The notes under the pieces were generated by a model. That model was not told the DNA's origin and made no database searches. It saw only the letters and a program-made list of their open reading frames with translations. A DNA stretch of 63,664 bases, counting the filler, from Folioceros fuciformis (Eukaryota): assembly GCA_049999805.1 (NCBI GenBank). It is 11 parts of 11 records of this genome, joined end to end, with 100 filler letters (N's around TTAATTAATTAA, not from the genome) between each part and the next. Parts side by side here need not be neighbours in the genome. Positions count along the whole stretch, not along the records: positions 11,440 to 18,372 come from JBNGIO010005250.1; positions 18,473 to 21,350 come from JBNGIO010005252.1; 9 more parts are not named here. One strand, written 5' to 3'. A program made the position numbers and the translations under genes. The stretch's first letter is position 1, and the number at the start of each line of letters is the position of its first letter. Positions 5,511 to 63,380 of the stretch are shown here, one piece after another.

Positions 5511-5821
5511 ACCGCGTCATAACGTCTCTAATCTGGATACAATTCAAGCTAAGCAGCTAAGCAGGTTCGCGAAGCTTCGGGTGCCTAGGGCAGCTTGGTC
5601 ATTCTCGGTACAGTACATTTGTTAGAGAATTCCGACTCTGCCTTTCTCGGATCGGACCGAGTGACCTTGTGTTGCGGGTTTGCTCGTTATCTTGGTCTTG
5701 TGTTGTTTGAGTAGTTGGTGTCCCTCCTCTCCTGCATTGTGGCCCCGGAGCAATTGATTGGTCTCCTGTTGAGCTCAGGGTGTGGCTGGAGTTTCCGCTA
5801 TTAATTGACTTGACTTGCAAT

Positions 5822-7111
5822 ATGATGATGTCGGTTGAGTTCAGTCATTACCTGGTGTATCCCCTACGCACGAATCGACATCTAAGAAGCGGACCTGGCC
5901 CAGAGACAAGCGTAAATTCACCTCCCATGGACACAGAGTTGTGGGACCGTCTCAGTCAGGAGATTGTTGACATTATGCTGGAGCATTTGCCGACAGACAA
6001 GCAGGTAACGCTGCGTACAGTCTGCACAAAGTGGCGCTCAGTGCTCAAGTCCCCAGAGCTCAGGCAAGGAAGCGCCACAAAGGCACTTTATCTCCATGGT
6101 TTATGTTTGTTATGGCCTGAATCGCAAAACCTAGTGAAGGTGGATCCTCCTCTGAGATGTGATGTAACCTGCGTTCCTACCCGGTATAGGCCACCATTAT
6201 ATCGGTATCCTACTTTAATGTTTCCACCAGCCTCCGACCATATTAGCTTTGGTGTGTACCGCCATGACAATTTATGGGTACCATTTGCAGTGTACAGTAT
6301 GGAATCAGGACTGTGTGTAGCCATTGTCAACTTGACAAAGAGTGTATGCAGGGATCTGCCTCCCCTCCGAATACAAGCACTCAGTGATCTAGCCTTTGAC
6401 GTTGGGAAGATTATTCATGAAGACCAGGATTCTTTCAGACTAACCATCCTATGTAGATATGCGAAATCAAAACTATATGTTGCAACATATTCAAGCAAAG
6501 ATGAAAGGTGGACAATGAAGAGGATCGATCTTACCGTCATTCCTGACACAAATATTGGGTTCATGATGGGCATCCAACGTCAAACTCATGATCTCTTGAA
6601 GATTAATTCTGAATTCTATATGTATGAGGATAGTTTAGTGTACTGGTCATGTGGCCGGTTTTTCATTTGTTTCAACCCAAAGAATGGACATTATATAACT
6701 CATATACATCTGCATTCTCTACTTCCATTTGATTGGTATGTTGCAGGCAGAGATGGTATGTTCTCTATTAACATCACTTACCCCCCAAATGTAACGGACA
6801 CAACTATCCAGATTTTTTTTTATTGCATGAACACGTCAATTAGTGATAGTAGTGCTGAAATTGAAGACAAAAGATATAGAAACGAAGGTCTAGTCTCACG
6901 GAAGATTGTGAGTACCTTGGCAATTCTTGTCTCAAGTGTGACTACCCAAGACTTCAATCCCCAAATACTAGGATTTTTTGATATCTATAAAGTTGACATG
7001 ATAGATGACACAATTTTAATAATTTTGCGACGCTTCTCATCTTATGATGAGTTCTTACGAATTATAGGGTATAATCTCAAAAGGAAGTTATGGCTTCATC
7101 TTCTTCATTAA
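5822..7111 (+). CDS. F-box protein (429 aa, intronless) with divergent beta-rich C-terminal region
   Basis: Intact ORF from the ATG at 5822, a start conserved in both paralogs. F-box motif LWDRLSQEIVDIMLEHLPTDKQVTLRTVCTKWRSVLKSPELR; F-box-associated-like motifs IVNLTKSVCRDLPPL, YSSKDERW and GYNLKRKLW. Confidence 0.85.
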   Translation: MMMSVEFSHYLVYPLRTNRHLRSGPGPETSVNSPPMDTELWDRLSQEIVDIMLEHLPTDKQVTLRTVCTKWRSVLKSPELRQGSATKALYLHGLCLLWPESQNLVKVDPPLRCDVTCVPTRYRPPLYRYPTLMFPPASDHISFGVYRHDNLWVPFAVYSMESGLCVAIVNLTKSVCRDLPPLRIQALSDLAFDVGKIIHEDQDSFRLTILCRYAKSKLYVATYSSKDERWTMKRIDLTVIPDTNIGFMMGIQRQTHDLLKINSEFYMYEDSLVYWSCGRFFICFNPKNGHYITHIHLHSLLPFDWYVAGRDGMFSINITYPPNVTDTTIQIFFYCMNTSISDSSAEIEDKRYRNEGLVSRKIVSTLAILVSSVTTQDFNPQILGFFDIYKVDMIDDTILIILRRFSSYDEFLRIIGYNLKRKLWLHLLH

Positions 7112-9379: not shown

Positions 9380-10868
9380 ATGATGATGCCGGTTGAGGAC
9401 GAACATTACGTGGTGTATCCCCTATTCAGGGATCGACATCTAAGAAGCGAACCTGAACCAGAAGCAACTCCCATGTGCGTTGAGGTGTGGGAGCGTGTTT
9501 ATCAAGATATTGCAGAGACTATTATGGGGTGTTTGTCCCCAGACCAGCAGAGAAGCCTACATGGAGTCTGTACAGAGTGGCGCTCACACCTCAAGTCCCC
9601 AAAGTTCAAGGAGCAAACCACATCGAGGGCACTTGCTCACCAGGGACAATGTTTGTTAAACGCCTGGTGAAAGTAGATCATCCTATTAGGGTTGATCAGA
9701 ACTTCGTTCCTCCCACGTATCGTCCCCCATTATACCCGTATCCTGCGTTTCCGTCACCCAGGGATATTAGGTTGGGTGTGTTCGATTCTAACTGTTTATG
9801 GCTAACGCTTATCACATTTAACAGGAAATTAGGTTTTTGTTTAGCCATAGTGAACTTGACAAAGAGAATATATATTGGGTTACCTTCCCTGCCTCAAGGC
9901 CAAGTTTTCCCAGGTTCACAAGTTTCATGCAAAGTTTCCAAAGTAATGGATGTGGGCAAGTTTGTGCAAGAGGACGAAAATTATTATAGTGTATGTATCT
10001 TGCTTGAATATCATCCAATACTATCATTATGTGTTGCAACATATTCCAGCAAGGATGGAAGCTGGACTATGAATTGGCTTGATGCTACCTATACTCCCCA
10101 TGAATTGGCTTGATGCTACCTATACTCCCAACACCGATGATCTGTGGACTATAATTTTGAAACCCTATATATATGGGCATAGTTTAGTGTATATCATACA
10201 TGATGATCTTACCATGAATTTTGAAAGGTGTTGGTTTCCTCTCTTGTTTGGATGCAAGGAACAGAGAGTACATAACACAAACAAGTTTGCCTATACTTTC
10301 TTTCGATACAAGAGATAGGTGTGTGGCACATAGTCATGGTGTATTCTGTATTAGACTTGCTTATCCCTACCACTATCCTTCAGGTACCACAATGACTATT
10401 AACATTTTTTCATGGAGTGTGAATGTGTCACCTAATAAGAGTAGTGACTAAGATATAGACAAACAAGAAAGAGACGAAAAGGATAGTGGTGAGGACCAAG
10501 ACAAAAGGTGTAGTCACCTTGAAGAGAAGGATAGACAGGATACAAAACAGGACAAAGATGAAAAGGATAGACATAAGGACCAAGACGAAGAGGATAAAAT
10601 AAGGCCAGATAAAATAAGGCCAGAGATTGATAAGAATGAAGATAAAAATGATGGTGACCAAGATGATGAGAGCATGGTTCTAGTCTCAAATGTGAGTACC
10701 TACGACTTCAACCCAACGGTGCCAGGACACATTTCTATCCATGAAGTTGACATGATCCAAGATACAATACTCATCATTTTGCGACATGTAACACCTCAAG
10801 GTGAACACTTCCTACGAGTTATAGGGTACAATGTTCCAAAAAAGTTATGGCTTCAACCTATTTTTTAA
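9380..10868 (+). pseudogene. F-box pseudogene, copy 3 (full length, disrupted)
   Basis: Colinear with 5822-7111 from MMM to RVIGYNVPKKLWL. Lesions: frameshift at ~9660, a ~30-bp tandem duplication at ~10069-10130, a further frameshift, and an in-frame TAA at 10449-10451. Confidence 0.85.
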
Positions 10869-11339: not shown

Positions 11340-11439
11340 NNNNNNNNNNNNNNNNNNNNNNNNNNNNNNNNNNNNNNNNNNNNTTAATTAATTAANNNNN
11401 NNNNNNNNNNNNNNNNNNNNNNNNNNNNNNNNNNNNNNN
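11340..11439. other. Artificial contig linker N..TTAATTAATTAA..N (also 18373-18472, 21351-21450, 29921-30020, 31778-31877, 36284-36383, 44098-44197, 52748-52847, 59383-59482, 62344-62443)
   Basis: An identical 100-nt spacer with stops in all six frames occurs 10 times. Confidence 0.97.
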
Positions 11440-13630
11440 GAAGAGGAGGTAGAAGATTTCCTCCAAAAGGAAGTGGTGGGAATTTTTCAAAAACAGGTAG
11501 TTCGCAAGGAGCAGCCTCAACTGTAAAAAAGACTAAAAGGACAGGTACATGCAATTGGGTTAAGTTACCTGGTCATTGGGAGCGTGAGTGTCGCAAATAG
11601 CAAGCTAAAGTCCCTTGCAAGGAAGGATCCAATGCTGCGACACATGTGGTGGTGAAGAAACAAAACACACCAGCAGCTTTGACAGTCGGGACAAGAATGT
11701 TTTCAAGTCCACTGTTGCTTCCCACTTGTCTTTCTACCAAAGCCAATGCTAAACCTACATCAAAGTGGTATTTAGATACAGGTGCAACTGCTCACATTTG
11801 TTTTGATTGACATGCTTTCAAAACATATAGGTCAATTCCATATCAGTACGTTTACCTTAGAGATGATAGATCTCTAGTTGCACGAGGTCGAGGCACAATT
11901 GAGTTTTTAGTCCCATCTGGCATCACATTAGTGCTAAAGGATGTCTACTATGTGCCTGAGATGACTAGAAACCTTGTTTCAGTCAAGAGATTAAATGCTG
12001 ATAACAACAATCACGTTGTTTTCACTAGAACAGACTGTAAGATCGTAGATGCATTTGACCCTAGGAAAGTACTTACGTATGGATTCTCTGACCATGACCT
12101 TTATCGTCTTGATCTTCATCGAGGAATAGCTGATACTGACCAGTCACTAGCTGTTTCTTTAGCCTCTGCACAACAAGTAGCAAAGTCTAAGTTGTGGCAT
12201 GCACGTTTGGGTCACCCTCACCTGGCAAAATTGCATAAGTTGGCCGTGAGTAGCCTATATCAAGATGGCCCCATTGGACCATTGGTTGATACTCCTCTAT
12301 GTGAAGCTTGTGTATTATCTAAGAAACACCAAGCAACTTTCAAGAATAAAGCACCTTACCGTGCCTCAAATCTCCTTGAGCTTGTACATACAAACTTGTG
12401 TGGAACCTTATCTCAAGAGTCCATTGGAGGTGGGCGTTAGTTTCTAACGTTTACTGCTGACAAAAGTCATTTTGTCACCACCTATATCTTGAAGAACAAG
12501 AGTGAATGTTTTTCCTACTTTAAGAAGTACATTAAGTTTGTTGAACGCTGGACAGGCAAACAGCTCAAGGCACTTAGATCTAATAATGGCAGAGAATACA
12601 TATCTAATGAATTTCAGAACTTCTATAAGGATGAAGGCATTGGTCGTCAACTCACAGTTGTTTATACTCCATAGCAGAATGGAGTTGTAGAGTGTTCGAA
12701 TCTTACTCTGCAGGAAATGGTTTCTTCTTTGCTGCATGATGCTATGCTGCCACTCCCTTATTGGGCTGAGGCCTTGATTACTTCAACTTATCTGCGCAAT
12801 AGATTGCCAACAAGTGTAGTTGCAGATAAGACCCGTTATGAAGCCTTTACAGACAAAAAGCCATCAATACAACATTTGAGGACTTTTGGTTGCCTAGCTT
12901 ATGCCTTAATCCCTAAACAGAAGAGAGTTAAACTCTCAGATAAAGCATGTAAGCTCCTTATGTTGGGCTATACAGAAGAGATAAAAGCCTATAAGCTATA
13001 TGATGTTCCATCTAATAGAGTAATCTAGGCTCGGAGCATTACCTTTGATGAAACCAGGACTTGGGCTACAGTGGGAGCTCATCTTGTAATACCAAAATCT
13101 GATGATGTAGAGAACTCATTGGAGATTTCCCATTTTGATGTCACAGACCATGGGACTCAAAATTCGGATGTATCTCCTGCAAAGGGGGCAACACCAGCCG
13201 CTGTTACAGAGTCAGAAGATGCACCTTTGTTGACTGACTCTGACCAGCCCATTATGCAGGACTTGCATCCTCATCAAGACATATTACATGATCCCCTACT
13301 TGATAGTGAAACATCGGAGCCTGAAGAGTTGCCAGATTCTGTTGATACCATTGATGAGATTGCATCAACTCTTGTGCCAGCTCCTGAACTTGCTCATCGT
13401 TATCCCACACGAGAACAGCGACCTCCTGACTTTGATAGTGCACCTGATTTTCGTCCATCTTCTGCTCATATTCGGGCATATGCTGCTATCTCACTTGATC
13501 CTGTTGAACCACAGTCTTATGTTGAGGCGTTGAGTAGACCTGATCATCCAGATGGCAAAAGGCCATACAATTAGAATATGACTCTCTCATTGAGAATGGC
13601 ACTTGGGAGTTAGCTAAGTTACCTCATTGT
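11440..13630 (+). mobile_element. Degenerate Ty1/copia internal region (gag zinc knuckle, protease, GAG-pre-integrase, integrase, start of RT)
   Basis: CNWxKLPGHWERECR, WYLDTGATAHI, LWHARLGHP, LELVHTNLCG, LRSNNGREY, HLRTFGCLAY and EPQSYVEAL, with many stops. Same family as 54146-58445. Confidence 0.92.
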
Positions 13631-15649: not shown

Positions 15650-18180
15650 GGGCCGGTGCCCGGCGGCTGCTTGGATACTCGGCCCGGATCCTAATTGGGC
15701 CAATCACTGCCCGCCTTAGCAATCCAACCTCCACCTACGCACACTTTGCCTGATCCACTCTGGCCTGCCACAATCTGCCGGGCAGGTCAGACCACCTTCC
15801 TGCCTGCCAAAATCTAGTCGCTACCTGCCTGGCCCGGATTCGGCTACTGTTGGGCCACCTACCAACTTCCCTCGATTGCCTGCCTCCAGCCATCTGGACC
15901 ATCCGGTCCAAACTGGCGAGCTTAGCAAGCAGGCTGCCTACTCAGAGGCCGTCTGTGCCCCGCCTGCTAGGTGCGTGGGCAGATCCAGCCAGCCATCTGC
16001 TGCATCCACCCCATGATCTNNNNNNNNNNNNNNNNNNNNNNNNNNNNNNNNNNNNNNNNNNNNNNNNNNNNNNNNNNNNNNNNNNNNNNNNNNNNNNNNN
16101 NNNNNNNNNNNNNNNNNNNCCACCCCATGATCTAGCCAGCCCCCTACCTTTCGAATCTGGACAGCTGGCCAGCCACCGGATTGCCGACCCGGGCTAAGCT
16201 GCTGGTTGGGCCCTTCAGCAGCCCCTCATCAACCAGCCCGCCGCCCTTGCCTGCCTACCATCTGCCGATTTGGCCGGCCAACCAACTAGTAAGCTTGGCG
16301 CCCGAATCAGCCCACTTGACCACATGCCGGCCCCTAGATCCATTCGAGACCGTAGCGGAATCTGACTTTGGCCCACCCCGCATGTGGATCCGCCTGAAGG
16401 CTGGAACCATCTTCCGGCCCGGGCTTCACCGGTCTCGGCTTGGATCCACCAGCCAACCAATAGCCAGCCCGTCGGTTGCCTGTGACAGGCCAGATCCGCC
16501 GTCACCCTACCCCGACCAGGCCACCTGCCCAGCCGGATGGATTCGCTTCGATCTGCTTGCCTAGCTGCCCACATAGACCCGTTGCCAGGCTGCTTGTCGA
16601 TATGGCCTCCTAGCTGGCTGGATCCGCCAGCCCATCTTCCCCTTGTCAGGCCCAGCCGTGACCAGCCTGCCCAGAGGCCGCACGCCGGCCTTCCATCCTC
16701 TAGATCTGGCCAGGCAACTAGCCCACCTAGACCCCACTTAGCCGACCCCCAGCCGCCAGGCGGGTACCTGGCTCTGGTAGCGTCAGTAGGATGGCAAAGG
16801 CCTGGCCATTGGGTTCGGCTGGCTAGCCGGATTCAGGTGGCAATAGCCCGGCAGTCTGGCTAGCAGAGCCAGCCGGCTAGTCGAGGATGGGTCAGACAGG
16901 GGCTGGTTGTCGGGTCCGGCCGTCTTGCTAACCATATCTAGCCAGCCAGCAGACCAGCCAGGCAAGGCGTAGTCGGCCGGACTGGGCGCTGGAGGCTGGC
17001 TGCCAAGGCGGCTGGCCGCAGCTGCCAGGAGAGCCGCCGACTGGGGGCGGGCTATTGAAGGGCCTGGCCAGTAGGCCAGCCTGGCCTGGCCATAGGACAG
17101 GCGATAGGGTGGGTGGCCGAGCCAGCAGTGACTCGGCTCCCTGGCTAGCCGACCTGGCCGGTGGATTCAGGCTACAGGTAGGCATTGCTGTTGGGCCGGC
17201 TGCGAGTGAGGCTAGAGTGGATGCAGGCAGGCCGGGGCCACAACAAGAAGCTTGGTAGTGGCCTGGCTGCAGGAACCAAGCAGCCAAGTAGGCTGACTTC
17301 CGGCATCTGGGTAGGCTGGTTGCTTGGCCGGATCCAGATGGCAGGAGGCATGTGGCCTGACTGGCAGGCAGGCCGGCCTGCCAGTAGTCCGACCTGGCTG
17401 GGCGGCCCGAGGGCTAGCCGGCAAGGCGAGGTGTAGGGTTGTCTCACCCAGCCTCAACCAGCCGGCCGGCTCTGCTAGCCAGATTGCCGGGCTGCTGCGG
17501 CCCAGCCACCTACCCGGCCGTTTGGATCCGGCCAGGCAGCCAAACCCGACGGCCAGGCCTCTGCCATCCTGCCGCCAATGCAACCAGCCGGTCAACCCAG
17601 CTGGTCGCATCGCCAGGCTGCAGGTGGCCCGGCCACCTCCTTCCATGCCGGCTTGCCCTCCCGGATCTGGCCAGGCAGCCAGCTCACAGAGCTGCCTGCT
17701 GCTTGCCTATAGCCAGGCCACTGTTGGCCCGGCCCCAGCCCCAGGCAGGATCCACACCGCCGCTGGCTCTATCCATGACTAGCCGGCCAGTTCGACTGAT
17801 CGCACAGCCGGGCCGCCTCCTGGTTCCTGCCCTTCCCACTATCCGTGTGCAGCCGACCAGGATGCCACCTGAGCGTGACGTTGTTGCCTTGCTGCTCTGT
17901 CCAGCGCCTTAGCAAGCTTGCCTGATGCCCCGCTGCCCGCCGCGACTTGGCCTGCCAAGCCCGACAGCCTACCTACCTCCCTACCTGGAACTAGCCGAAG
18001 TTTGCAGCCGCCAATTAGCCAGCCTTTCCGAATCCACCCCAGTAGCAGGTTGGCTCACTTGCCGACCAAGATGCGGCCAAGCATGCCCAGCCGCCTGCTC
18101 GTCATGACCACGCCAACAGCCCTATTTGCAGCCACCGTGTGCTGACTCTACCTGCAGCCGCCCTACCAGGCTGTAGGCAG
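15650..18180. repeat. GC-rich cryptic satellite / low-complexity repeat (CCAGCC, GCCTGCC, GGATCC/AGATCT motifs) with an internal inverted segment
   Basis: Dense shuffled short motifs; polarity flips at ~16760-17430. Similar sequence at ~30640-31720. Confidence 0.75.
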
Positions 18181-18593
18181 AGTCACCCTAACCCCAGGAC
18201 CCGTGACTCTTTGACCACAATCACCACCCAAGCCCTAACTGTCCTACCTAGCTCAATTCCCTATCTACTTTGCTAGAGGATTCAGCCAAAATTCAAAACA
18301 AACAAGTACTACCATTTTTCTAGGAGATCTACCATGTGGACTCCACATTAGGACAAATGCATTGTTGCATAGNNNNNNNNNNNNNNNNNNNNNNNNNNNN
18401 NNNNNNNNNNNNNNNNTTAATTAATTAANNNNNNNNNNNNNNNNNNNNNNNNNNNNNNNNNNNNNNNNNNNNGAGGGTGTGACATTACTGCACGGGTGCT
18501 GTCATGGTCGCACACTGCCTGCACACACACACCACCATTGCCACCACGACTGCAACGTCATCCTTCCACTATCGTCAGCCCTTGCAGCCTCAC

Positions 18594-19384
18594 CTGATTG
18601 TGCACGGAAGGCCCTCTTATGAAGTTGCTGCTGTTCTCCCTCGGTCTTGCACGCACGAAATCTGCCTCCACTAAGTTGTGCTCAGCAGCAAAGTCAGACC
18701 GCAGTCGTTGTGGGTGTCCAAACTTCTCCACAGCCCCTCGATATACGTCGTAGATAGTTTCTGCCCTCTTGTTGTCTGCCAACACTGCCCACGTAATGTA
18801 GTGGGTGGCACCATCGATCGCTGCGTGCACCCTCATGTGGTACATGTACATCTTGTCGTAGGTTGCAGCCACAGCCACTATTAGTAGGCACCTGCACTCT
18901 GCACCGCAACCCGTTAATCAACTACAATTCTTGCCCGCACTCACAGTCCATGTGCCACATGTACATTGGCGTTCGATTTGTGTATTGCACTCGCCTGATG
19001 CGCACACTCGCTCTCATTGCCATCGCCTCCGGCTGTAATGCCCGCAGAGCAGCGTTTATTTTCCTCCTCGGCACTTTGTACCCCGCGTCCACCAACGCAA
19101 CTTTCACCACCCCCACCCCCCAGGTCACCCCGTGCCTTGTGATGGCCACACTGTCCAAGATCAACGCCGCAATTGTCTCCACTGTTAGCAGTTGCCCTGC
19201 ATATGCCCCTGTCCACCCTGGACACTTTTCAAGCCATCGCCGCAGTGTTCTGGGTGTGCAGCCAAACTCGCCAGCCAGGGCTATCAGCGTCCCTCCACTA
19301 CGCCTCTGTTGCAGCGCCATCTCCTCCAATTCATGGAGTGGCACAGGGCAACCCATTCCTCCATCACTCCCCCCGCTGCTCACA
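18594..19384 (-). mobile_element. IS3-related eukaryotic DDE transposase (IS3EU-type 'integrase core'), intron-containing, partial
   Basis: HTH (TLIALAGEFGCTPRTLRRWL), then GVGVVKVALVDAGYKVPRRKINAALRAL..RIRRVQY..PMYMWHMD, intron 18944-18863, then SYDKM..VHAAIDG..TIYDVYRGAVEKFGHPQRLRSD..E.N..FIRGPSVHNQ and a GTGAGG donor at 18593. This matches the WHxDGyDKL...IDG...yGxPxrvRsD...GxSvhNqRIE family pattern. Confidence 0.8.
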
Positions 19385-20847
19385 NNNNNNNNNNNNNNNN
19401 NNNNNNNNNNNNNNNNNNNNNNNNNNNNNNNNNNNNNNNNNNNNNNNNNNNNNNNNNNNNNNNNNNNNNNNNNNNNNNNNNNNNTCCACCCCACTGGTTT
19501 CACCTATCAAGCCCTTCCTTGCCCCTTCCTTCTCCCTCACCTCACCTTCCCACCACGTCCTTCAGCTTTCGCCGATGCAACAGCCAGTGTAATGCATCTG
19601 TGCACCTTGTATGTCTTGGTCGCCTCACAGGGTTCCCCCTTCCCTTCCACACCCGGGACTGCGTTCGCCTCCTCTTCACCACGCCGCCGTTCGCCCGCCA
19701 CTTAGACGATGATACCTTCCCACTGTCACCTGTCCTGCCCTTCTCAGGGCCCGCACTAGCAATGGCACTGCCATTGACTCCTGCCCCCTCGTGCAATCGC
19801 TTTGCGCCCGCTCCTCCTCCCCTATGCGACCGCAGTGCCACTGCTCTTGCTCCCCCGTGCGATCACACTGTCCTCGCAAGATATGCCACCTCCGATCAAA
19901 CTGCACCAGCTCCTCCTGGCCGTGCCCCTTATGGCACTGCACCCTCTGCTGGCCGCGAAGGCAAGATCCGCATACACTCGTGCCATGTGTGACAGATATG
20001 GCTTACTTGAACTGCACAAGCCTTACCCAACTGCCAGCGGCTGCATGCAAGCCACCCGTCATCGCCTCCACATCTCAGCCATCCACTTGTTAAAGCGACT
20101 GCGTTGCCTAACATTTATGACTCCTCCACCAGTTGCCTGCACTTCTCACGATAGCTCTCATTTCCTGTCGTCACCTCCATTGCACCTCCATCGCAACTCC
20201 ATTTTCGCTTGCAGGGTTGCCAATCAATGGCTAGCACACTGCACAAGGCAGATCCGCCCGTCCTCGGGTTCCCCCCACACCGCAGCCCCATCTATAGCCT
20301 CTTAATGGCAGCCATGTTGGCATCACTGGCTGCCGAGGCCCGGGGACCAAGCATGCTCCCCACAGTAGTCGTGCCCAGTAGGCGGTCACGCGTCCCATGC
20401 CAGGCTCCCTAATCAACACCCCGATCGGGCCTGGCGACCTGGTGTGTTCCTTCCACGATCTCGCCCGCCGACCTTATAGGCTCTCCGCTCGCCTCCCTTG
20501 CCACATCACGGGCTCCTCCGAGGTGATTCGCGAGTGCGCCCAGTCCCTGCGACAGCGCGGGCTCACGACCCCAGCCCTCCAACCTCTCGGCCTCCTGCGC
20601 TCCCTTGCCTAGCAAGGCGACATCCCCGTCTACCAACCCGATGCGCTGAGAGATAGCAAGGACTTGGCTCGCCGCATTTGATGGTGTCGTTGGATTGGGT
20701 GCTAATGTTGGTTTCGCATATGCAACAGGGTTATAGTGTACTACTAAGCCCACCCAATTATCACAACTCTATTAGCCCCACATCGATGCACAGGGGCACA
20801 TCCCTCGTCCCTGCCCTTTTCTTTATGGTGGCTAAGGATCCAACTCA

Positions 20848-21350
20848 CTATGGCAACCCGTACACTGCATTGTGGGCTATGGCCACCTCAATGCGCTCTT
20901 GCATGATGGCGACACACTCGTATCGAGGGAGCAACAACGTGCTCGTGCAAGTCCTAGAAGTGGGCACTTGCCCATCAGCCAGGAGAGGGACCTTCGTCAC
21001 TGTCATTGGACCCCCTTCGCTGAAATAAACCCTATCTGTGATGAATGTGTACAATTTGGCCCTTTGTGCAAAGCTCAGCCTCCTAATGGTTGTGGCGTAC
21101 ATTTCCCTGGTCTCCATCGAGCATGAATGGAAAGTAGTTGCCCTCAGAAACTCTTCGGGTCTGCACCCACGGGCACCAGAGAAGAAAAAACACACAACCT
21201 CCAAGGACATGGTGTCCACGATCGGGAGAAGGGCCCTAGAATCCAAGCTATGAAGGACGTGCCTGAAGCCCTCCGCGACCATTCCCCCAATTGGATAGCA
21301 GTTGCTGAATAGCAGGTCCTTCGTCAATTTCCCTTGCAGCGCCGCGACGT
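20848..21350 (-). CDS. HECT-domain E3 ubiquitin ligase C-terminal part (5'-partial, open to the contig end)
   Basis: LSFAQRAKLYTFITD...VPTSRTCTSTLLLPRYECVAIMQERIEVAIAHNAVYGLP* fits the HECT C-lobe consensus (ll.FvTG...lP.shTC...L.LP.Y.s.e.l.erL..Ai....gFg), with the catalytic Cys intact. Confidence 0.8.
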
Positions 21351-21450
21351 NNNNNNNNNNNNNNNNNNNNNNNNNNNNNNNNNNNNNNNNNNNNTTAATT
21401 AATTAANNNNNNNNNNNNNNNNNNNNNNNNNNNNNNNNNNNNNNNNNNNN

Positions 21451-23438: not shown

Positions 23439-23494
23439 AGACAAAATAGTAGGGAATCGCATCAGATTAGAATGGATTGTACATTAGCGCTCTA

Positions 23495-23700
23495 CCAGCA
23501 GTCTCTTGTGCATGCAGACTCCGACAGACACATCCTTGGTGCCTGCCAGCTGTCTCTTGTGTATGCAGACTCTGACAGACACGTCCTTGGTGCCTGCCAG
23601 CTGTCTCTTGTGTATGCAGACTTTGACAGACACGTCCTTGGTGCCTGCCAGCTGTCTCTTGTGTATACAGACTCTGAGAGACACGTCCTTGGTGCCTGCT
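23495..23700. repeat. 51-bp tandem repeat x4 (possibly within the 5' LTR)
   Basis: Unit CCAGCTGTCTCTTGTGTATGCAGACTCTGACAGACACGTCCTTGGTGCCTG. Confidence 0.9.
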
Positions 23701-30020: not shown

Positions 30021-31777
30021 GCCCTAATCTAACCCTAACTATCAACCGATCCCTAGACCTAACCGCACTATAGCAAAATGATTAGAACCTCGTCTCCAAT
30101 ACCAACTACCACCTCAGCTGAACGAGGGCTCAACATCATCTTCAGCCCCCACTCCAGCACAACGGCTCTCTACTCCAGCACTCCAACACTTCAGTCCTTC
30201 ACCACCACGTCTCACTCCTGGATTTCAAACACAACAGCCCTTCACTTGCAGCGCTTGAGGTAGGGATGTGCAGACCCAGGCTGGATGGCCCCCTTGGCCC
30301 ACAGCCCTGCAGTCCGTCGTTTTGGAAACCCCTTAGGGACGTCGAGGTATCCCAACCACCCAACCAGCATGCAAGGGAGATCAGCCCTTGCGGATCTCGC
30401 AAGGGCTGATCTCCTTCGCCTTCAGGCCCCTTCCTCCATTCTATTGGCCAAGACCCCTGACCCGGCAAAACTACCCCTGCACTGCACGTTGCCCAAAGCC
30501 ATAGTTGAAGACGCTCCTCTCCTATTGCACACGTCGCTGCCATGGCCCGAATTCTTCCTTGGGCACCAGTCCCCGATTCGCACTGCTCAATTCAACACCC
30601 CTCCACAGTGCCATCGGAGCCTGCCTTTGGACCTGGCCGTCCCCGAGCGCCTGTGCCTACCTGGATTCGCCTGCAACCACCCCTGCTAGCGGATCAACCC
30701 ANNNNNNNNNNAATTCGGCCCCGACCTGCCTGCTCTGCCAACTTGGGTCATTCCAGCTACCTACTTGGACTCCAGCAGCCGGACATGTCTGGATTTTGCT
30801 CTGCCCCACCTTCAGCTGCAGCCAGGTCGGCCCCAGCCTAATCCACTAGTCCTGCCTAGGCCTGACCATCCTGGATCCACGCGCAGCTGGTCCTGGCCAC
30901 TTGCTTGCAGCCGAGTTTCTGCGCTGCTGGGGCCCCTGCCCACCCTCAGCAGCCAGGCTGCTCGCCAGCCCCTGCAAGCCGCCTGCCTACCACCTGCTTC
31001 CAGATTTGGCAGCCTCGCCTGGTTGCCTAGCCGGGCTGGGCTGCCTACTCCTTACGAGCCCCTGCTGGACAGCCCAGATCTAGCCATCTGCAGCCGCTGC
31101 AGCCTCTGACTGGCCCAGCCTCGACCAGCCGACCAGCTCTATTAGCCGACAGCTGCTGGCCTGGCCATCCTCCGGGCTGCCTGCCGGCCGGCCTAGCCTC
31201 CCAGATCTAGCCAGGCAGCCCGCCCACAGGCTCACCTGCTGTCTGCTCGCAGCTGGGGCGGGCTGGGCCGCTGGCTAGACCCCTCAACCACCACCTCCAG
31301 CTAGTAAACCCCCCTTGCCAGATCTCAACCACCAGCCTGCCTGCAGCTAGATCATGCCGAGGCCTGCCTGGCCGTCAACCTCTATCTATTTGCCTGCTCT
31401 GCTGGGTCGCCTACCTGCGCCTGGCCGTTCTGCTGCTGTAGCCAGCCTGTCGGGCTATTGCTAGGCCCTCCAGCCGCAGCCGCCGATGGCCTTGGCAACC
31501 AGCCTCCACCGGACCGCCTGCCTCCACCTCCGACCAAACCAGCCGCCCAGCCAGGCTGCCTGCTCTCTGCTTAGCCGGGCTAGGTCCATTCCTACTACCT
31601 GCTGCCTGGCCGGCCTGCTAACCTCCAGATCCAGCCCCAGCTACCTGCAAGCCGGCGACTGCCTGGGTAAAACAACTGGCTAGGCCGCTACTTGGCTTCG
31701 GGATCCCCCAGCCAGCCTGCTGGTTTTGTCTGCGGTTAGGTCTAGGGATCGGTTGATAGTTAGGGTTAGATTAGGGC
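30021..31777. repeat. Contig bounded by perfect 47-bp terminal inverted repeats, with a GC-rich satellite-like interior
   Basis: 30021-30067 GCCCTAATCTAACCCTAACTATCAACCGATCCCTAGACCTAACCGCA is the exact reverse complement of 31731-31777. Confidence 0.85.
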
Positions 31778-35473: not shown

Positions 35474-36764
35474 ACCGTGCATTTTTTTTTATCTTGTAGT
35501 CCTATGCCTGATTGTAGATTGTCTTTGTCTCTCTATAGTCTAGCATAGTGTGCTACTTGTAGTGCTAAAATGCAATCATGCTAGTGTAATTATCCAGGAT
35601 GACGCAGAGGAGAGGAGAACAATGTTCTCATGGCTTTAGAAAGTTTAATTATCCCTTCCAAGGTCAAAGAACAGTGAGAAGGCAGCAATCTCCTCGTCTG
35701 TTGCCTTTATTTTGCTGTACAGAGCTTCAATTTCTCTATGCTGGATGGGGCAAACGTACAACTCCTCGTGTAGATCCTACACACCAATTTAATCATAGAA
35801 TTGTTGCAGATAGTGGTGCTGGAAATTTTCGCAGGCATCTTCTACAACGCATTTTCAATAGGCTTGTTTGTCTTGATAAAGTACTTGAGAGAATTGAGGC
35901 TTTGGTGGATCGTTTGGACTTGTTACTATTAATTCTGCAAGATATTTCTGCTAGGGTTAATAGATTGAATGAATTTTCAAATCCACTTACACAATTTGCT
36001 TCTAATCAATCTATTTTTTGCTGATTTACAAGCAAATTTGAAGCCTACTCTTGGGAGTTTGGGCACTCAATCCAATTGATACTTGCATATAGCAAAGGTC
36101 ACAGTCTTTGTTGAAAGGTTGTGATGAAAGGGTGCCTGCAGCAAGCACCAGCAACTATCAAGTCTAGTTCTTTTTTGATTGGTTAGCAATTAGGGCTTCT
36201 GGCCTTTAATTTAATTTAATTTTTAAATTAGGGTAATTTTTCAATTGGAATGGGTTTCTTGCTTACCTCACATGCCTTTTCATNNNNNNNNNNNNNNNNN
36301 NNNNNNNNNNNNNNNNNNNNNNNNNNNTTAATTAATTAANNNNNNNNNNNNNNNNNNNNNNNNNNNNNNNNNNNNNNNNNNNNTTCTTCCATGGCCAAGG
36401 AACCATTTCGGCTGGAAGCTGATTCCGCTGAATAAGGTACCGTTTTCAAGCCAGGTTCTAGCTGCTGATCCCACTCCTTCCCACCTCTTCTCTATCTTTC
36501 CAATTGCTCATGCTCCTCCCCTGGAGGCTGGCTCAGCCACCAAGGGTGAACAGCTGTAGGGGAAGACTTAGCGAGCAGCCATCCAACAAGGAAGAGGCGG
36601 CGTCCGCAGATCTTTGAAGATCAGACATCCTCCNNNNNNNNNNNNNNNNNNNNNNNNNNNNNNNNNNNNNNNNNNNNNNNNNNNNNNNNNNNNNNNNNNN
36701 NNNNNNNNNNNNNNNNNNNNNNNNNNNNNNNNNCTCAGGATAGTCTAAGAGGTTGTAGATCCTT

Positions 36765-37717
36765 GTGGTGGTAGGGCCAGCTCATTGGTGGCAGGATGTG
36801 CTAGAAGTCTAAATAAGTGGCTGGTGACAGCCAGTTAGGCTATTAAAATAATATTTCTCAAGTTAGAGAGAGGTGAAGTCAGAGAGAGAGAGAGGCTCCT
36901 ATAAGATCAGGTGAGCCTGTAGAAGGAAGTAGTCATTCACTTTGGGAGTTAGTCTATCACTTCGTGAGCTCTTGGAGGTACTCTCTTCATGAGCTCTTGT
37001 GGTCTGTCCCTGCTTGGTTTAGGACCTGTAGTGTGTTGCCGGCTGTGCAACGTTTGGTAGGATCGCAAGCCGCGTGTTGCCGGTTGTACAGTGTCTTGTA
37101 GGATCACAAGGTGTAATGACCAGGGTGAAGGGGCTTGCCCCTAGCTCTTGATTGTAAAGGATGTGTCTTTCTCTCAAACTGTCCACTCTTGTTCCCTGTT
37201 TGGACAAGTGCTGTAGGCCAGCCATGTTTCATGGCGTCTGGTAAGGTTGTGGGGAGGAGATATCCGAGAGGGGAGTGTGTTCCCTTCTTTCTTTTCTTTG
37301 GGGTTAGCCTAGTGACTCTTGTCGGCTAGGAGGAGTCAATAGGGAATTGTAGAAGGTAGTGGTGTCGTTGTTAGTTGCTGGTGTTGGTGTTGGAGTGAGA
37401 GAGTGAGTGAAGTGAGTGAGGGAAGTTGCAGATCTGAGAGGTTAAGGTCGTTGTAGTGATAAGAGTGAGTTTGTGGGCACCGAGAGAGGTGCAGCTGACC
37501 GCTGGACAGCGAGGCCTGTCCTACGCCTAATCGGAGCTGGAGGGGAGCCCTCGAATCCATCATCGAGTTGATTGAGTCCGACCCTCCATCCACAACAGCA
37601 AGGAACCCCATCGCTCCTACGTGGGAACGGAACCCAATGTCTCAACAACAGTGGGATAAGTGTGGCCACTAAAGGTGGAACCCGTTGGCAATCAGTGCTC
37701 GGGGTTTTGCCTCCACA
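36765..37717 (+). mobile_element. LTR-like dispersed repeat, copy 2
   Basis: Colinear with 44201-45286; ends GGTTTTGCCTCCACA. Confidence 0.75.
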
Positions 37718-38111
37718 GAGCTCCAGCTTCGTCTATCCAATGGCAAACTTCTCACCATCAATGGCATCCTTCACGTCCCTGCCCATGACAAAAAACTTGT
37801 TATCAATCCGTAAACTAGCCACATAGCATGACCTCATCATTACCTTCTAGGTAAATCACTGCATAGTCCATCGTAGCAAGGATCCGAACCAGGTCAGTTG
37901 GAATATAAGGTAGACCACGTGGTTCTGTATTACGTGGTTGTGTTGGTTAGCCTAACTAGACCTAGTTATAGGTGTAGTTAGTTAACTGGCAAGTTAGTCA
38001 AAGGGCACACCCCTTTTTAAACTACTACTTAAGGCCTACCTTTGTATCCACCTATTCAGTTGCTAATAAATCATTTTCGATGCATCTGGTTCTGCGTTAG
38101 CAATTCTAACT

Positions 38112-38123
38112 TGGTATCAGAGC
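38112..38123 (+). promoter_or_regulatory. tRNA-iMet PBS preceded by a short LTR-like segment (~37925-38110)
   Basis: TGGTATCAGAGC, with AATAAA ~45 nt upstream. No recognisable gag follows. Confidence 0.6.
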
Positions 38124-39677
38124 TACGGATCAGATGGCCTATGTTTATTATGCCTAGAAGATTGTTTGTCCTAAAATGTCTAGGTAGCATAGTGTCTTGG
38201 GTGTGAATATGCCATCAATTTTTTTTTCTTTTAGAAGAAAACAAAAAGAACTGAGCACCTGGGGTAGTTCACCCATCTAGGTACTTATACAAGCTCAAGG
38301 CGCTTAATACTAGAGTTTTGGTAGAAGACAGGCTATCAAACCCCTTTCAACTTTCTACAATTTAAATTTGATTTCGTGCAGATATCAACAGACAGCAGCC
38401 TGTATGAATCTTCAAAATAAAGGGAGAGGCATTCTGCCTCTCCCCTACACTACGTCGCGAGCGACCTCCCAGCCTGATCATGGCTAGAAGACGGCGCCAA
38501 AATGTACGATTTCCTTGTCTTCTTGAAGCACGATTGCCTAGGCCAACTCGCCTTGGATCAACGCCAATTCCTGCTCATCGAATTGCACCAAGATGTGTGT
38601 AATCTGTGGCAGGAGAGCTCCTCCAAATGCTTTTCTTTGGCAATCTTGTTGGGGAGGATTCTGGCCGTTTTGCTTCAAATCATGACCTGATTTTTGGAGA
38701 GGACCTCCACCTTACCAAAAGGACCCTAGCACTTGGCCGAAATTGCACCCGTGCCTGCACCTGCACACCAAGATCAAGCCCAAAAGTCAATTGTCTTCAA
38801 CATGGTTTTTCAGAAGATGATTATGTCCCCGGGGCGTCTCGGAGCCTTCTGTCCCTTCATGAGGAGCAGACAATCGATAATGCTCTCCTCTCTAACCCTG
38901 TAGGACGAGGATTTGTGAGGATTTGTTCAGATTGTGGTGGATTTGCTTCTGCCCAAGAGCATGGGCAAATCGGCAAGACAGGAGCTCAATCTTGTTTGAT
39001 TACTGTGTAGGAGGAAGGCATTTTCCGGGACGCACCGTCGCCAAACCACCATCACGATTGGGCCAGGCTACAGGCGCTCAGCGAGGAGCGTGCTGCCACC
39101 ATCGCGGTCGCGGTGGAGAGCTGCGCCCAGGGCGCTCACCCTGCACGCGGGGAGGCGCATGCACCTACGAACCGGAGCGTGACCCCCGAAATGATGTTTT
39201 AACTCGTCGTTTTGTGGAGGTGGGTTTGTTTTATCCATGAACCAGTGTGAATGCATCGATTCCGAACTGGCATCGATTTTTTGTCCCATTTTGTGCCTCT
39301 TCACACTTGTTGGCACCCCTTCATGGAGATTTTCTGGCACAACAAGGAATTACCTTTGTTTTTCCTACAGCTTGGACTGGAGAAGAACTCAACCTTGCAC
39401 TCGTGAAGGTCGAGGCCGATCCTTTGCCTCCTCCTCATCACGGTTTGGCAATGCGGTGCATCCTCACCGGAAATCCATTAAAGAAATTTCTGCTTCGTCT
39501 GGAGACTCTCAAGGTTGATTCGATCCACCAACATGGCCTGCCAGACTTCTGGCTCTCTGGCAATTAGTGGCCAACGCCAACGAAGATCTTCTCCACCTGG
39601 CAACCCAAATTCAAGAATTTCAAGGGAGTGTCGATTCTGAGAGCGCTGAAGTCACCAAGCCTTCTCCTCCTCTCCTT

Positions 39678-39927
39678 TGTTGAAATAGCACCACTAGCTA
39701 GATGGATTCCACAGTATGTTACTTATGGTACACAGGATGCTACATATATAGCCTTCAGGCGGGGCAACCCTTGATAAGGTAAGCCTTAGTCTCGAGGGTG
39801 CAATATCCTGGTATATCCTTATAACACTTAGGTGGTAGATAACTACAAGTTCAATATGGAATAATCTACACTATCCTAAGTGTTGTATGCTCTTAATAAC
39901 AATTCAGTTAGAGCTTGATTTCTAACA
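39678..39927 (-). mobile_element. 3' LTR (250 bp) of the copia element
   Basis: TGTT...AACA termini, preceded on the minus strand by the polypurine tract GAGGGGGAG (39936-39928). Confidence 0.85.
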
Positions 39928-42900
39928 CTCCCCCTCAAGCTCAAGACTATTTGTAATACTCCAAGTAGTTCACGAAAGTGTAAGAACTTATCTCTACCTA
40001 GCAACTTAGTAAAGATATCTGCTACCTGGTCTTCGGTCTTCACGTGCCGAAGATCTATCTTCTCAGATAATACCACTTCCCTGATGAAATGATAATGTAC
40101 TTCTATGTGCTTCGAACGAGCATGAAACACAGGATTAGTAGGCAACCTCATGCTACTCATGTTGTCACGGTAGATTATGACCTTGCTATTCACTATATTT
40201 CCAAGATCATGTAGCAACTTCTGCAACCAAGTTGCTTCACAAGCTGCCATTGCAGCTCCTCGATACTCTACTTATGTGCTTGACAAAGCAACTGTCGGTT
40301 GTTTCTTGCTTTGCCAGCTGATCATACTACTTCCCAGACTGAATGCATATCCATTGGTTGATCTTTTGTCATACGCACAACCAGCCCAATCAGCATCTGT
40401 ATATCCTGTTAGTTCAAGATGCTTCCTATGCTCATAGAGCAATCCAAACTCACTAGTTCCTTTCACATATCTCATGATTCTTCTAATTGCATCCAAGTGT
40501 GGTTTCCTTGGGTTCTGCATGAATTGACTAATCAGTTCTCCTGCATAACTTAAGTCAGGACGTGTGATAGTCAAGTAGATCAAACTTCCGACCATCTGTC
40601 GATACATGGTCACATTTTCCAGCTCAGTTCCTACATCCATTTACAGCTTGACGCTCTGCTCCAATGGTGTATCCATCACTTTGCAATTTGCCATGCCATA
40701 CTTCTGCAGCATATCCTTAGCATATTGTTTTTGCAATAGCCAGATTCCTTGAGGTGTAGACACAACCTCAATTCCTAAGAAGCATCTAAGTTCACCAAGA
40801 TCCTTCACCTTGAACTCTTTTTGCATATTCGCCTTGACATCTGCAATACCATCTGCATCATCTCCTGTGATGATCAGGTCGTCAACATAAACGACAAGAC
40901 ACACTTGTCCTGCCTTGGTCTATTTTACAAACAGACTGTGATCTGCTTCTCCAATCACAAACCCTCGTTCCTTCAAATAACTTGTGATACGAGCATTCCA
41001 TGCTCTAGGTGCTTGTTTGAGTCCATACAATGCCTTCTTCAGTTTGCATACGTACGTTGGAAACTTAGGATGAACATAGCCTTCAGGGTGTTCCATGTAC
41101 ACTTCCTCCTGCAACTCGCCATTCAAGAAAGCATTCTTGACATCCATTTGCCATAACTTCCATCCTTTAGCTGCTGCAAATGCTATGATTGTCATCTTGG
41201 CTACTGGACTAAAGGTTTCGTCATAATCAAGACCATATTGTTGTGCATATCCCTTTGCAACCAAGTTGGCCTTGTAACGCTCCAGCGTTCCATCTGACTT
41301 GAACTTCAGCTTGTACACCCACTTAGAACCGATAGGAACCTTGCCATCAGGCAATTGAACCAAATCCCACGTTCCGTTCTCAACTAATGCTGAGTATTCT
41401 TCATCCATGGCTTGACACCTCTTATCATCTGTCACTACCTCAACAAACTTGGTTGGCTCCTTACGAGTTGTGACCCTTGTCATATACGCATAATGTTGCG
41501 CATTGTAGCTTGTATAGGTGTACCTGTCGATGGGTTTCCTAACCCTCTTAGATCTCCTTGGTCTTGGTTTAGTTTGAACCTGCCTTGCATATCGTTGCTC
41601 CTTAGCACCTGGCGTTTCCACAGACGGAATGCCAAACTCACTATCAATGCTCTCACTACCTGAGGATTTATATCCCTCATTTCCATTTTTGCTGCTTTCT
41701 ACTCTCCCCCTCACTGACATGTCTGGGTCAATGGTCTTGGGTTTACCATTCCGCAGTCTTCCAGACCATGGATTCATTGTTGGTCATCCACCATTGGTCA
41801 CATCCTCACTCTTTGTAGGAGTACTCTTAATATTACTCCCCCCCGTGGGTTCGTCATAGGGTAGTGCAACTGAGTTGCTATACCAGGAGGCTAACTCATC
41901 AAATACCACATCCCTACTTATCAGGATCTCATGTGTGGATGGCACATAACACTTATATGCCTTCCTATTTCGTGCATACCCCAGAAAAACACTCTTCACT
42001 ACTTCAGGATCCAGCTTCCTACGCTTCTCATCAGGTACATGCACATATGCAATGCACCCAAACACTTTCAAGTGCCTAATATCCGGCTTATAGCCATAGA
42101 GTCTCTCAATTGGTATAGCATCATGAATTCCTACCGTAGGAGTTCGATTCAGTACATACACTGCTGTCATCATTGCTTTCGCCCAATAATCATTAGGTAA
42201 GCACTTCTCATTCAGCATTGCCCTTGTTGTTTCCATGACTACCCTGTTCTTCCTCTCTGCAACACCATTCTACTATTGTGTGTATCTGCAAGTCTTCGTA
42301 TACCATGATCTGCAAGATACCTATCAAACTCACTTGAGACATATTCTCCCCCTCCATCTGATCTTATACAAGAAATGGAGCAGCTGAATTCATTTTCAGC
42401 ATGCTTTTTGAAGTCCTTGAAAGACTCAAACACTTCATCCTTATGCTTCAGTATGTACAGCCGCGTGTACCTGCTGAAATCATCAATGAAGGAGACATAG
42501 TAGTGGGCTCCTCCAAACGATGCATTGTGTGAAGGACCCCATACATCAGAGTGTATCAATTGCAAAGGTCTCGAGTTGTTCTGCACGTGTCGCACAAATG
42601 AAAACCTTGATTGTTTTCCAAATTGACATGCAGAACACACATGACCAAGATAAGCATACTTGAACTTGGGCAATCCTTCCACCACGCTTTTCTGTTGCAT
42701 AGATTTTAGCTTCTATATGTTCACATGCCCAATCCTCTTATGCCATATTTCAACATCACGTATGGCACCTGCGTCATTTGTAAACATTGCTGCATTTAGC
42801 TTTGGAATGGATGCATCCAGAGTGAACATCCGTGCATTCCTACTACCTTTAGCAATCAGTTTGCGCCCTTTGTCATATTCCTCAATAAAGCATCCATCTT

Positions 42901-44097
42901 TATTAAATTGAACCTGCAGATTTTGTTCAGCCATTTGTCCAATAGACAACAGGTTCTTCGTAATGGTTGGAACATGCAACACATCTTGCAGACTCTTCTG
43001 CTGACCATTCGGCATCCTAAGAGGAACAATTCCTTTGTGTTTTATGTCATATTGTGTGTCATCTCTTGTACACACATGACCATGGGGACCTACATCCATC
43101 TTGTTAAACCACTCGCCATGTGGAGTCATGTGGTTTGATGCTCCTGAATCAATGTACCATCTCTCATCATTCTGCCCATCCTGTTCAGAGAGATGTTGCA
43201 TGGCAAACAACCTATCCTGGTCATTTCCAACATTACTAGAGGAGGCATAGTTCCCATGCAGCCTTCCTTTTCCTCTCATGTCTGCTTGCTGCTTATAGCA
43301 GTCCTCAGCAATATGACCAACCTTTCCACAGTAGTAACACTCCTTGTCTCTATTGGAATGGTCATGAGATTGAAAAGAACCATCTCTTCCTCTTGTGGCT
43401 CTACTTGTGCCTCTAAAACTTCCAGATCGTCTCTGGCCTTGCGCATTTCCTCCACGCCAATTGTCTTGCTGATTCTGCGTGTTCCGAGCATCACCCCGTC
43501 CTCGGAATAAACCACGACCTTTGTGGCCTCTCCCACGCTGGTTAGAAAACAAAACAGTGTCTCTCCCTTGAGACATACCTGAACCTGTGTTCAGACCAAG
43601 CTTAACTTCCTCATGCAGCAACAAAGCAACCAATTCATCCCAACTTGGGAACTCAGCTCTCACATAGATTGATGTGTCAAAGGACTTAAATTCCTTGCCA
43701 AGTCTATTCAGAGTAATTGCAACCATGTCATCTTCCATCACACTTGCACCAATTGTAGCAAGCTGATCAGCTATGGTCTTCACCTTTGTTGTATACACGA
43801 GTATGGATATGCTACCTTGTGACAAGTTGTTGAACTGCTGCTTCAACTGGATTTTCCTAGCATGTGTGACATTCCCATAGTTCCTCATGAGTATGTCCCA
43901 TGCATCCTTTGGAGACTCACATCCCGTGATCTGTATGACCATAGCATCTGAAATACTTAAGGAGAGCCAGTGTAACACTTTACATGCTCTCTCAGTCCAA
44001 TGCTTATGAGCAGTCTTTTGCTCCTGTGATAGAGTACGATCCATCTCCGATTCACTCTCATCACCTGTGCAGAGGTCCCAATAGCCTCTACCTACTA
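39928..44097 (-). mobile_element. Ty1/copia gag-pol, nearly complete, with frameshifts and stops
   Basis: gag CYYCGKVGHIAEDC, protease WYIDSGASNHM, integrase IHSDVWG..IRSDGGGEY, RT QMDVKNAFLNG..VYVDD, RNaseH YTDADWAG..KHIEVHYHFIRE..ADIFTK, in copia order (INT before RT). Confidence 0.97.
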
Positions 44098-48200: not shown

Positions 48201-48560
48201 ACAAACGGCCCAGGGGGCCAGGACGCAAGCCGGTAAAACCTCGATCTTTCTTCAACCTTCCAATGGCGGACCTCTTCCTCTGGATGGTACGAACGAAGAA
48301 ACTCAAGCAACGACAACCAATGGCTCCCAGGTTACAGCTCTCTGTGCAGCGACAAAAGGAGGCTATTAAGCTGCTTTGGAAGTCAGTAGGAATTCCTTCC
48401 AAGGTTAGGACAACGGTTTAATGTTTTTTTCAAGTTTGTTTGCCTAACGCGGATCGGTGGGATGAGTTGTTGGTTGCCACTGGAGCCCCAAACAAAAGCC
48501 AACACGTGTTCTTCCATTGCTGTTTTGCCCAAGAGATTTGGAGCGAGGTGGGTCGCCCTA
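45287..48560 (+). mobile_element. Non-LTR retrotransposon (L1/Tx1-like) ORF2, degenerate
   Basis: Endonuclease end RLDRFYV..SDHHPI; RT KSPGHNG, NWRPITLL, LDFYKAYDSIEW, VRQGCPLAPFLF, FAYDT, KYLGLP; KVAW..GGLGV-like motif; C-terminal HVFFHC..AQEIW. Confidence 0.92.
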
Positions 48561-62901: not shown

Positions 62902-63278
62902 GCTCAAAGGAGGTTAAAACAAGTTAGTTGAAGCAAGATGCAGAATCCCAAAACTAAGAGCACTATAACAAGGCTCTTAAACTAAAATAAAAAGGAGAAT
63001 TACAAAAACAACACAATACAAGTGAAGAGGGAGTTAGACTACATATACTAAGTGGGTTCATCCCTTCTTTTATGGACCTATGGGTGGCACTCTCATTTCG
63101 TGCCCAATATGGGATAAATGACCCCAAACCCTACAATACTTCTTTTGCCTAACATAGCAAAGTCTAATAAGCTATATATATATATTAATCATAACCTTAA
63201 TCACTCTTACCACTAATTAGTACAAACTCAATAAGCTGGATTAGCACTAATTAATATCAACATTAATCATGCTTAACA
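62879..63278 (-). mobile_element. 5' LTR (400 bp) of the half-tRNA-primed copia
   Basis: TGTTAAG...TCAACA termini, internal TATATATA run, adjacent PBS. Confidence 0.75.
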
Positions 63279-63380
63279 CTNNNNNNNNNNNNNNNNNNNN
63301 NNNNNNNNNNNNNNNNNNNNNNNNNNNNNNNNNNNNNNNNNNNNNNNNNNNNNNNNNNNNNNNNNNNNNNNNNNNNNNNN

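Follow-up and report, generated by a model that had tools for sequence, protein, structure and literature searches.

A divergent HECT-domain gene upstream of a putative IS3EU/GingerRoot-type transposase in a multicopy repeat of the Folioceros fuciformis assembly

The 63,664-base window analysed here, taken from the Folioceros fuciformis assembly GCA_049999805.1, consists of 11 small scaffolds with 10 N44-TTAATTAATTAA-N44 spacers between them, and these spacers contain stops in all frames. As these unplaced scaffolds were strung together artificially, nothing follows from what lies on the two sides of a join. The subject of this study is a locus that coincides exactly with the third of these scaffolds (scaffold 3; 18473-21350, 2878 bp, GC 0.57) and that pairs the 3' part of a HECT-domain gene, i.e., a gene of the HECT E3 ubiquitin ligase family, with a transposase gene. 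An earlier note on this DNA had proposed that both genes are real and lie on one scaffold in the same orientation, and this was borne out: Pfam profiles recognise HECT (PF00632, E 1.2e-11) and the integrase-core family rva_4 (PF24764, E 9.2e-13), both on the minus strand. The HMMER check proposed for the two peptides gave 45.2 bits for HECT (cut-off 23.9) and 48.8 bits for rva_4 (cut-off 26). The coordinates of all features are collected in Table 1.

The 5' part of the HECT gene is cut away by the scaffold end at 21350, and the remaining frame matches the Pfam HECT profile over positions 162-305 of 306. The strings PTSRTC, LLLPRY, FITD and YG, which had been quoted previously as its hallmarks, are all present in this frame, as is the catalytic Cys. 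Relatives of the HECT piece were compared in an alignment of 13 rows (A1: the HECT piece, its relatives and three cluster mates), in which L100, F103, T105, T134, C135 and P142 are invariant, and in a profile alignment the T-C column of this family lines up with the catalytic HTC of WWP2. A profile of the HECT piece and its relatives matched 77 solved HECT chains at E<=0.01, the best being WWP2 (9e-17). The AlphaFold2 model of the piece has a mean predicted local distance difference test score (pLDDT) of 70, with block means of 75-96 across residues 61-160, the C-lobe half. Foldseek returned 103 PDB matches for this model at E<=0.001, HECT structures throughout among the matches listed, with template modelling scores (TM-scores) of 0.68-0.77 normalised to isolated C-lobe chains. 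With a Pfam score above the cut-off, 77 solved chains and Foldseek matches that are all HECT among those listed, the HECT match is not a chance one; the piece has the Pfam score, the C-lobe Cys and the C-lobe fold of a HECT E3 ligase.

The piece is like the canonical HECT ligases (NEDD4/WWP2, HUWE1, HACE1, HECTD3 and the plant UPLs) in its C-lobe fold, the T-C context of its Cys, the LP.Y motif that follows and the aromatic residue at position -4, a position at which HECT enzymes canonically have a Phe with a role in their function. It is unlike them in being 16-24% identical to solved chains, among the matches listed, in reading FITD for F.TG, and in having Tyr instead of Phe at -4; compared with WWP2, the loop after FITD is ~10 residues shorter, as read from a gap in the profile alignment. 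Because the stop codon of HECT is overlapped by a GTGAGT, a reading in which HECT and transposase form one spliced gene was considered. It was rejected, since 11 of the 12 other rows of A1 (all except P0005, which ends otherwise) stop two residues past the aligned aromatic-Gly/Arg pair, an ending that canonical HECT enzymes require.

A HMMER search of 1.84 billion representative proteins with the HECT piece gave ten matches with E<=1e-3, of which none reached E<=1e-10; the top match is 27% identical (E 2e-6). Its distance from canonical ligases, as described in the earlier note, is thus real, and these weak matches argue against recent copying from a canonical host UPL, though they leave room for a lineage-specific host family; in terms of sequence similarity, the HECT gene is an orphan. 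Nine of the ten matches are small HECT-like proteins, while P0002 is a long repeat protein aligned over 34 residues and was left out of the HECT relatives. Pfam found HECT in all eight of the matches that were scanned, and the ninth relative (P0010) shares the aligned motifs. The relatives have FIT(D/G) in place of the canonical F.TG, an aromatic-Gly ending at the C-terminus and a loop ~10 residues shorter than that of WWP2. They (P0001 and P0003-P0010) come from metagenome or Logan assemblies, and their sole label is 'hypothetical protein'. One 90%-identity cluster has 12 members, single members occur on up to 17 contigs, and some of the contigs are 55-217 kb long. Among longer proteins, a word-indexed search with the HECT piece gave no match, and the A1 profile recovered one 1983-aa HECT protein (E 5.8e-6). 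No HECT relative was found in a scan of metagenome contigs with a second alignment of relatives (A2), and nothing was found in scans of viral contigs with A2, P0028, P0003 and P0004; close relatives only are detectable in these scans. One metagenome contig (L001) was matched by P0010 over 21 residues within a 95-aa stop-to-stop frame that lies under much longer frames in high-GC, bacterial-looking DNA, and was treated as a false match.

The transposase gene occupies two open reading frames (ORFs). The upstream one (19383->18922, minus strand) ends in WHMD and has weak, sub-threshold matches to helix-turn-helix (HTH) families, i.e., HTH_28 (E 7e-4, 20.1 bits, cut-off 25) and HTH_23 (E 1.4e-3). 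The downstream one (18917->18561, minus strand) contains the IDG, RSD and GPSVHNQ motifs; its rva_4 match covers profile positions 18-103 of 194, and rve was also matched (E 5.9e-5). The NCBIfam matches were confined to weak ones to IS481, ISNCY and IS3, with the IS481 transposase at E 2.8e-5 over residues 27-147. The Protein Atlas clusters nearest to the integrase piece are rva_4, with Eukaryota as the taxon where one is recorded; the word-indexed search of longer proteins gave no match to this piece, and a literature search on PF24764/rva_4 found no relevant paper. The two frames are joined by a putative intron, the acceptor of which is the sole one of three candidates that keeps the frame and joins WHMD to the rva_4 frame. 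The transposase lies downstream of HECT; counting the gap, 1465 nt separate the stop codon of HECT from the start of the HTH frame, in agreement with the distance of ~1.5 kb across a 100-N gap given before.

Table 1 Features of scaffold 3, in positions of the 63,664-base window
Feature	Position	Strand	Remarks
Transposase exon 2, integrase core (IDG, RSD, GPSVHNQ)	18594..18877	-	rva_4, rve; ends at donor-like GTGAGG
Second catalytic Asp codon (RSD)	18695-18693	-	Exon 2
Putative 67-nt intron GTGAGT...TAG	18878..18944	-	Sequence reading
Transposase exon 1	18945..19356	-	Candidate ATG 19356-19354, HTH ~19317-19228, linker to WHMD; start and end read from sequence
First catalytic Asp codon	18948-18946	-	In WHMD, exon 1
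Scaffolding gap, 100 N	19385-19484	.	Transposase contig on one side, HECT contig on the other
Spacer between genes	19485..20847	.	1.36 kb; copies vary by 11-149 nt deletions
TAG stop of HECT gene	20848..20850	-	Three residues past YG; protein ends ...YGLP, Tyr at -4
Catalytic Cys codon (TGC), in PTSRTC	20947..20949	-	T134-C135 invariant in alignment A1
Divergent HECT-domain gene, 3' part (N-lobe end and complete C-lobe)	20851..21348	-	166 codons, open from scaffold end

Copies of the locus were sought among the contigs of two public runs (X1 and X2), which carry one sample and species label and in which 0.71 and 0.60, respectively, of the sampled words of the scaffold are present; these runs may themselves have gone into the assembly, and a copy number does not follow from the summed depth of the contigs. 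Runs X4-X6, which have the same species label but are tiny, contain next to none of the sampled words; no RNA run was among the carriers of the sequence, and the one run presumed to be RNA gave no matching contig. These negatives count neither for nor against the repeat or its transcription. The 2778 non-N bases were matched by 139 short contigs in X1 and 150 in X2, distributed over the identity classes >=99, 95-99 and 90-95% as 54/45/40 and 49/49/52, respectively. Depth was present in all 30 of 30 bins of the scaffold in X1, and up to five variant contigs overlie one site in the HECT gene (21126), the transposase (18782) and the spacer (20232). Scaffold 3 is therefore present in multiple copies, dispersed or not, as shown by variant contigs at 90-100% identity. 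Since variants at 90-99% identity tile the whole scaffold without a break between the genes, we regard it as one multicopy, transition-mutated repeat. No pile-up of contig starts or ends along the scaffold was reported, which argues that there is no repeat boundary between HECT and transposase. The gap itself is bridged by one contig in each run: in X1 a contig joins 19384 to 19485 with a shorter side of 29 letters, which is under the 31-letter rule applied, and in X2 a deletion variant joins 19114 to 19488 with 31 letters. Within the spacer, deletion joints among the copies lie at 19591, 19758 and 20586/20587, and the eight ORFs that are in or overlap it, on both strands, gave no Pfam family.

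Changes between copies are rich in transitions, C>T and G>A together making up 78 of the 178 change types in X1. The CpG observed/expected ratio of scaffold 3 is 0.69, that of TpG is 1.50, and the CpG ratios of the other scaffolds are 0.32-0.64; CpG depletion, TpG excess and transition-rich changes together are what would be expected of a methylated repeat from a genome like that of the other scaffolds. Among the indels listed, three are frameshifting insertions in the transposase ORF and none falls in the HECT ORF. A search within the scaffold for inverted repeats longer than 17 nt found none. In a third run from the same sample (X3), the change types are skewed towards G>A (37, versus 5 for C>T), and most contigs have 90-95% identity. 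Conversion of the library by bisulfite or enzyme may be the reason, and X3 was left out of the counts; if it is such a library, it could report the methylation state of the scaffold 3 repeat.

From these observations we infer, with a confidence that puts the reading at about an even chance, that scaffold 3 comes from the interior of a decaying, multicopy transposon of the IS3EU/GingerRoot type in which the transposase gene is preceded by a divergent HECT gene; that it is a single element, as well as its termini, function and host, is likewise our interpretation. IS3EU and GingerRoot form one lineage with 99% bootstrap and have TA..TA termini and a 6-bp target-site duplication (TSD; PMC10045372), and the group definition used for comparison was termini of TA..TA (rarely TG..CA), inverted repeats of 30-150 bp and a 6-bp TSD. 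The earlier note had placed this integrase type mainly in animals and fungi rather than in land plants, which is wrong: GingerRoot was first found in the lycophyte Selaginella lepidophylla and is reported, among plants, as limited to bryophytes and lycophytes (PMC6839031). These elements measure 3.9-12.9 kb, well beyond what the transposase needs (PMC6839031). Scaffold 3 appears to be like them in combining an HTH with an IS3/IS481-like integrase core without an HHCC zinc finger, is like them in being multicopy and, if it stems from the plant, in its occurrence in a non-seed plant; an element with the HECT gene inside would also match their great length relative to the transposase gene and the extra sequence that many of them contain. 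It differs in that neither HECT nor another ubiquitin-system gene came up for the group in the papers searched and in that the defining termini and the 6-bp TSD are not seen in scaffold 3.

Enzyme cargo has precedents in this lineage. IS3EU elements of rust fungi and Tuber bear TET/JBP genes, families with TET/JBP also bear an alpha-kinase gene, these extra enzymes are thought to help against host silencing, and in three families TET/JBP is co-oriented with the transposase, as HECT is in scaffold 3 (PMC12730594). The differences are the cargo (a dioxygenase or kinase there, a HECT ligase here), the host, and the limits of the element, which are not seen in scaffold 3. Given the gene fragments of GingerRoot and the cargo of fungal IS3EU, an IS3EU/GingerRoot element with extra coding sequence in a plant is not new in kind. 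The word 'ubiquitin' has no occurrence in PMC12730594. Our literature search found no report of a ubiquitin ligase, HECT or other, inside a transposon. Plant Mutator-like and CACTA transposons bear ULP1-like protease genes; here, too, a second gene from the ubiquitin/SUMO system accompanies the transposon, but it encodes a protease rather than a ligase, and the transposon belongs to another superfamily.

If scaffold 3 is such an element, the N-terminal HTH of the transposase would bind the element ends, and the RNase-H-like DDE core would excise and insert the element by cut-and-paste, with TA..TA termini and a 6-bp target duplication expected by analogy with IS3EU/GingerRoot. The second gene, which is co-oriented with the transposase, lies ~1.4 kb upstream of it and is probably part of the same repeated unit, ends in a divergent HECT domain that appears catalytically equipped; its protein is predicted to accept ubiquitin from a host E2 on the Cys and would then hand it to a target. 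In our view the mobile lineage would have carried HECT for a long time, as a passenger or an accessory gene, and would not have copied it recently from a host UPL, and the likeliest gain would be the ubiquitin-dependent removal or modification of a restraining host factor, or else control of the element's own transposase. The present copies appear to mutate freely: their changes are rich in transitions, and the transposase frame is shifted in some of them. A bolder proposal, which we put forward only tentatively, is that a fast-evolving HECT lineage is a standing second gene of IS3EU/GingerRoot elements, that the small metagenome HECTs with FIT(D/G)...YG are other members of it, and that it would constitute the first transposon-encoded E3 ligase, with which the element would tag either a restricting host protein or the transposase itself.

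Several points weigh against this interpretation. The third catalytic residue of the transposase (Glu) is outside scaffold 3, because the scaffold ends 120 nt past the donor-like GTGAGG, and the step from rva_4 to IS3EU/GingerRoot is provisional. The sole physical link between HECT and the transposase crosses the 100-N gap, with one of the bridging contigs under the 31-letter rule, and the placement of both genes inside one element is drawn from contig tiling of one sample that is possibly the assembly's own. Neither the ends of the element nor a TSD nor another full copy can be seen; termini and TSDs are out of view because the scaffold ends cut both genes. The N-lobe of HECT, to which the E2 would bind, and whatever region would bind a substrate are likewise absent from the scaffold, so that any ligase activity is putative. 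The earlier note had taken the two frames as one mobile element, and while the whole scaffold behaving as one multicopy, diverged repeat fits that claim, the listed variants (40 of 238 variant sites) show no sign of purifying selection: synonymous to non-synonymous changes stand at 3:5 in HECT and at 4:11 in the transposase, one stop included. Lastly, the paper on GingerRoot (PMC6839031) uses neither of the words HECT and ubiquitin, and its supplementary captured-gene tables may bear on this; both words also have no occurrence in PMC11934779 and 10.1101/2021.09.26.461848.

The alternative that survives best, although we think it rather improbable, is a Pack-type capture, in which the element took up the 3' fragment of a divergent, lineage-specific host HECT gene and carries it as a non-functional passenger. 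Such captures are frequent in GingerRoot elements, as 22 of the 77 intact GingerRoots of S. lepidophylla bear host gene fragments of 84-1654 bp (PMC6839031), and there is no synonymous excess in HECT (3/8 among the variants listed). However, the 166-codon frame is open to a natural stop, with the Cys, the core of the C-lobe and the spacing at the C-terminus all preserved, and the listed indels spare the HECT ORF while three strike the transposase ORF. Moreover, there is no canonical plant-type ligase in the ten matches, and only 6 of the 22 fragment-bearing GingerRoots retain the DDE motif (PMC6839031), whereas the transposase is present here.

The host is a separate matter, as scaffold 3 could derive from a fungus, alga or protist associated with the plant, independently of whether it is one element; we consider this unlikely. 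The GC content of 57% is above the 39-52% of eight of the ten other scaffolds, the putative intron is short (67 nt), a blastn comparison with the other ten scaffolds showed no similarity, IS3EU is common in fungi (PMC12730594), and the sequence-bearing runs come from one sample only. Yet equally GC-rich stretches occur elsewhere in the window (30021-31777, 62%; 16120-18372, 64%), the scaffold of the latter holding a copia element, though across a gap; genes of S. lepidophylla range from 26 to 78% GC (PMC6839031); CpG depletion and TpG excess resemble those of the other scaffolds; and one species label is common to all runs listed. None of these points against an associate is decisive.

It is a still fainter prospect that HECT and transposase have no functional link and are nested repeats, a repeat beside a gene family, or the product of a false scaffold join across the gap. 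The two halves meet at a run of 100 N, mate-pair links are prone to be false in repeats, and the gap is bridged by two short contigs only, one of them with a shorter side of 29 letters. This is countered by the HECT-side contig (19485-21350), which is multicopy over its full length with the 1.36 kb spacer included, by the lack of a contig-end pile-up that would mark a repeat boundary, and by the deletion variant that connects 19114 to 19488. A remnant of an integrated giant-virus-like element with HECT beside an integrase is very improbable: some HECT relatives lie on 55-217 kb contigs, and mosses and Selaginella have giant-virus-like inserts (PMC4083422), but the viral-contig scans with HECT relatives, within their reach of close relatives, were empty, the transposase is nearest to rva_4 clusters of Eukaryota where a taxon is recorded, its gene has a putative spliceosomal-type intron, and the moss regions are reported without an integrase, in a paper (PMC4083422) in which neither HECT nor ubiquitin occurs.

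The other scaffolds of the window, which is divided by spacers at 11340-11439, 18373-18472, 21351-21450 and seven further places, hold the content expected of unplaced, repeat-rich pieces of a plant assembly. Genes of copia-type long terminal repeat retrotransposons (gag, Pol beta-barrel, integrase and SH3-like) lie at 36384-44097, 52848-59382, 11440-13600 and 62444-63664; several have frame breaks, and they are typical plant repeat content. Reverse transcriptase ORFs of the long interspersed nuclear element type (RVT_1, E 8e-20) are split over several frames at 45500-48418. A 466-codon open frame at 5711-7108 has a weak F-box match (E 2e-4), and strings of its peptide recur at 2075-2485 and 9484-10110, which may represent a small F-box family on one scaffold. 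At 23490-23700 a unit of ~50 nt is repeated in tandem, with one frame reading as the repeated peptide QLSLVYADSDRHVLGAC. The stretches 16120-18372 and 30021-31777 are GC-rich (62-64%) and low in CpG, with long overlapping ORFs in several frames, the second being also C-skewed; both look like simple or degenerate repeats and have no similarity to the HECT scaffold.

If scaffold 3 is one element, its HECT gene is a cargo that has not been described for the IS3EU/GingerRoot group; if HECT is a captured fragment only, the element would be an ordinary Pack-type one. Transposons are known to bear proteases of the ubiquitin/SUMO system, and others demethylases and kinases; as far as our literature search shows, a ubiquitin ligase would be new as cargo. 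If confirmed, a mobile element with its own means of tagging host proteins would open a way to study the defences of DNA transposons against host control in land plants that diverged early, and the long interior of GingerRoot/IS3EU elements would find an explanation in part.

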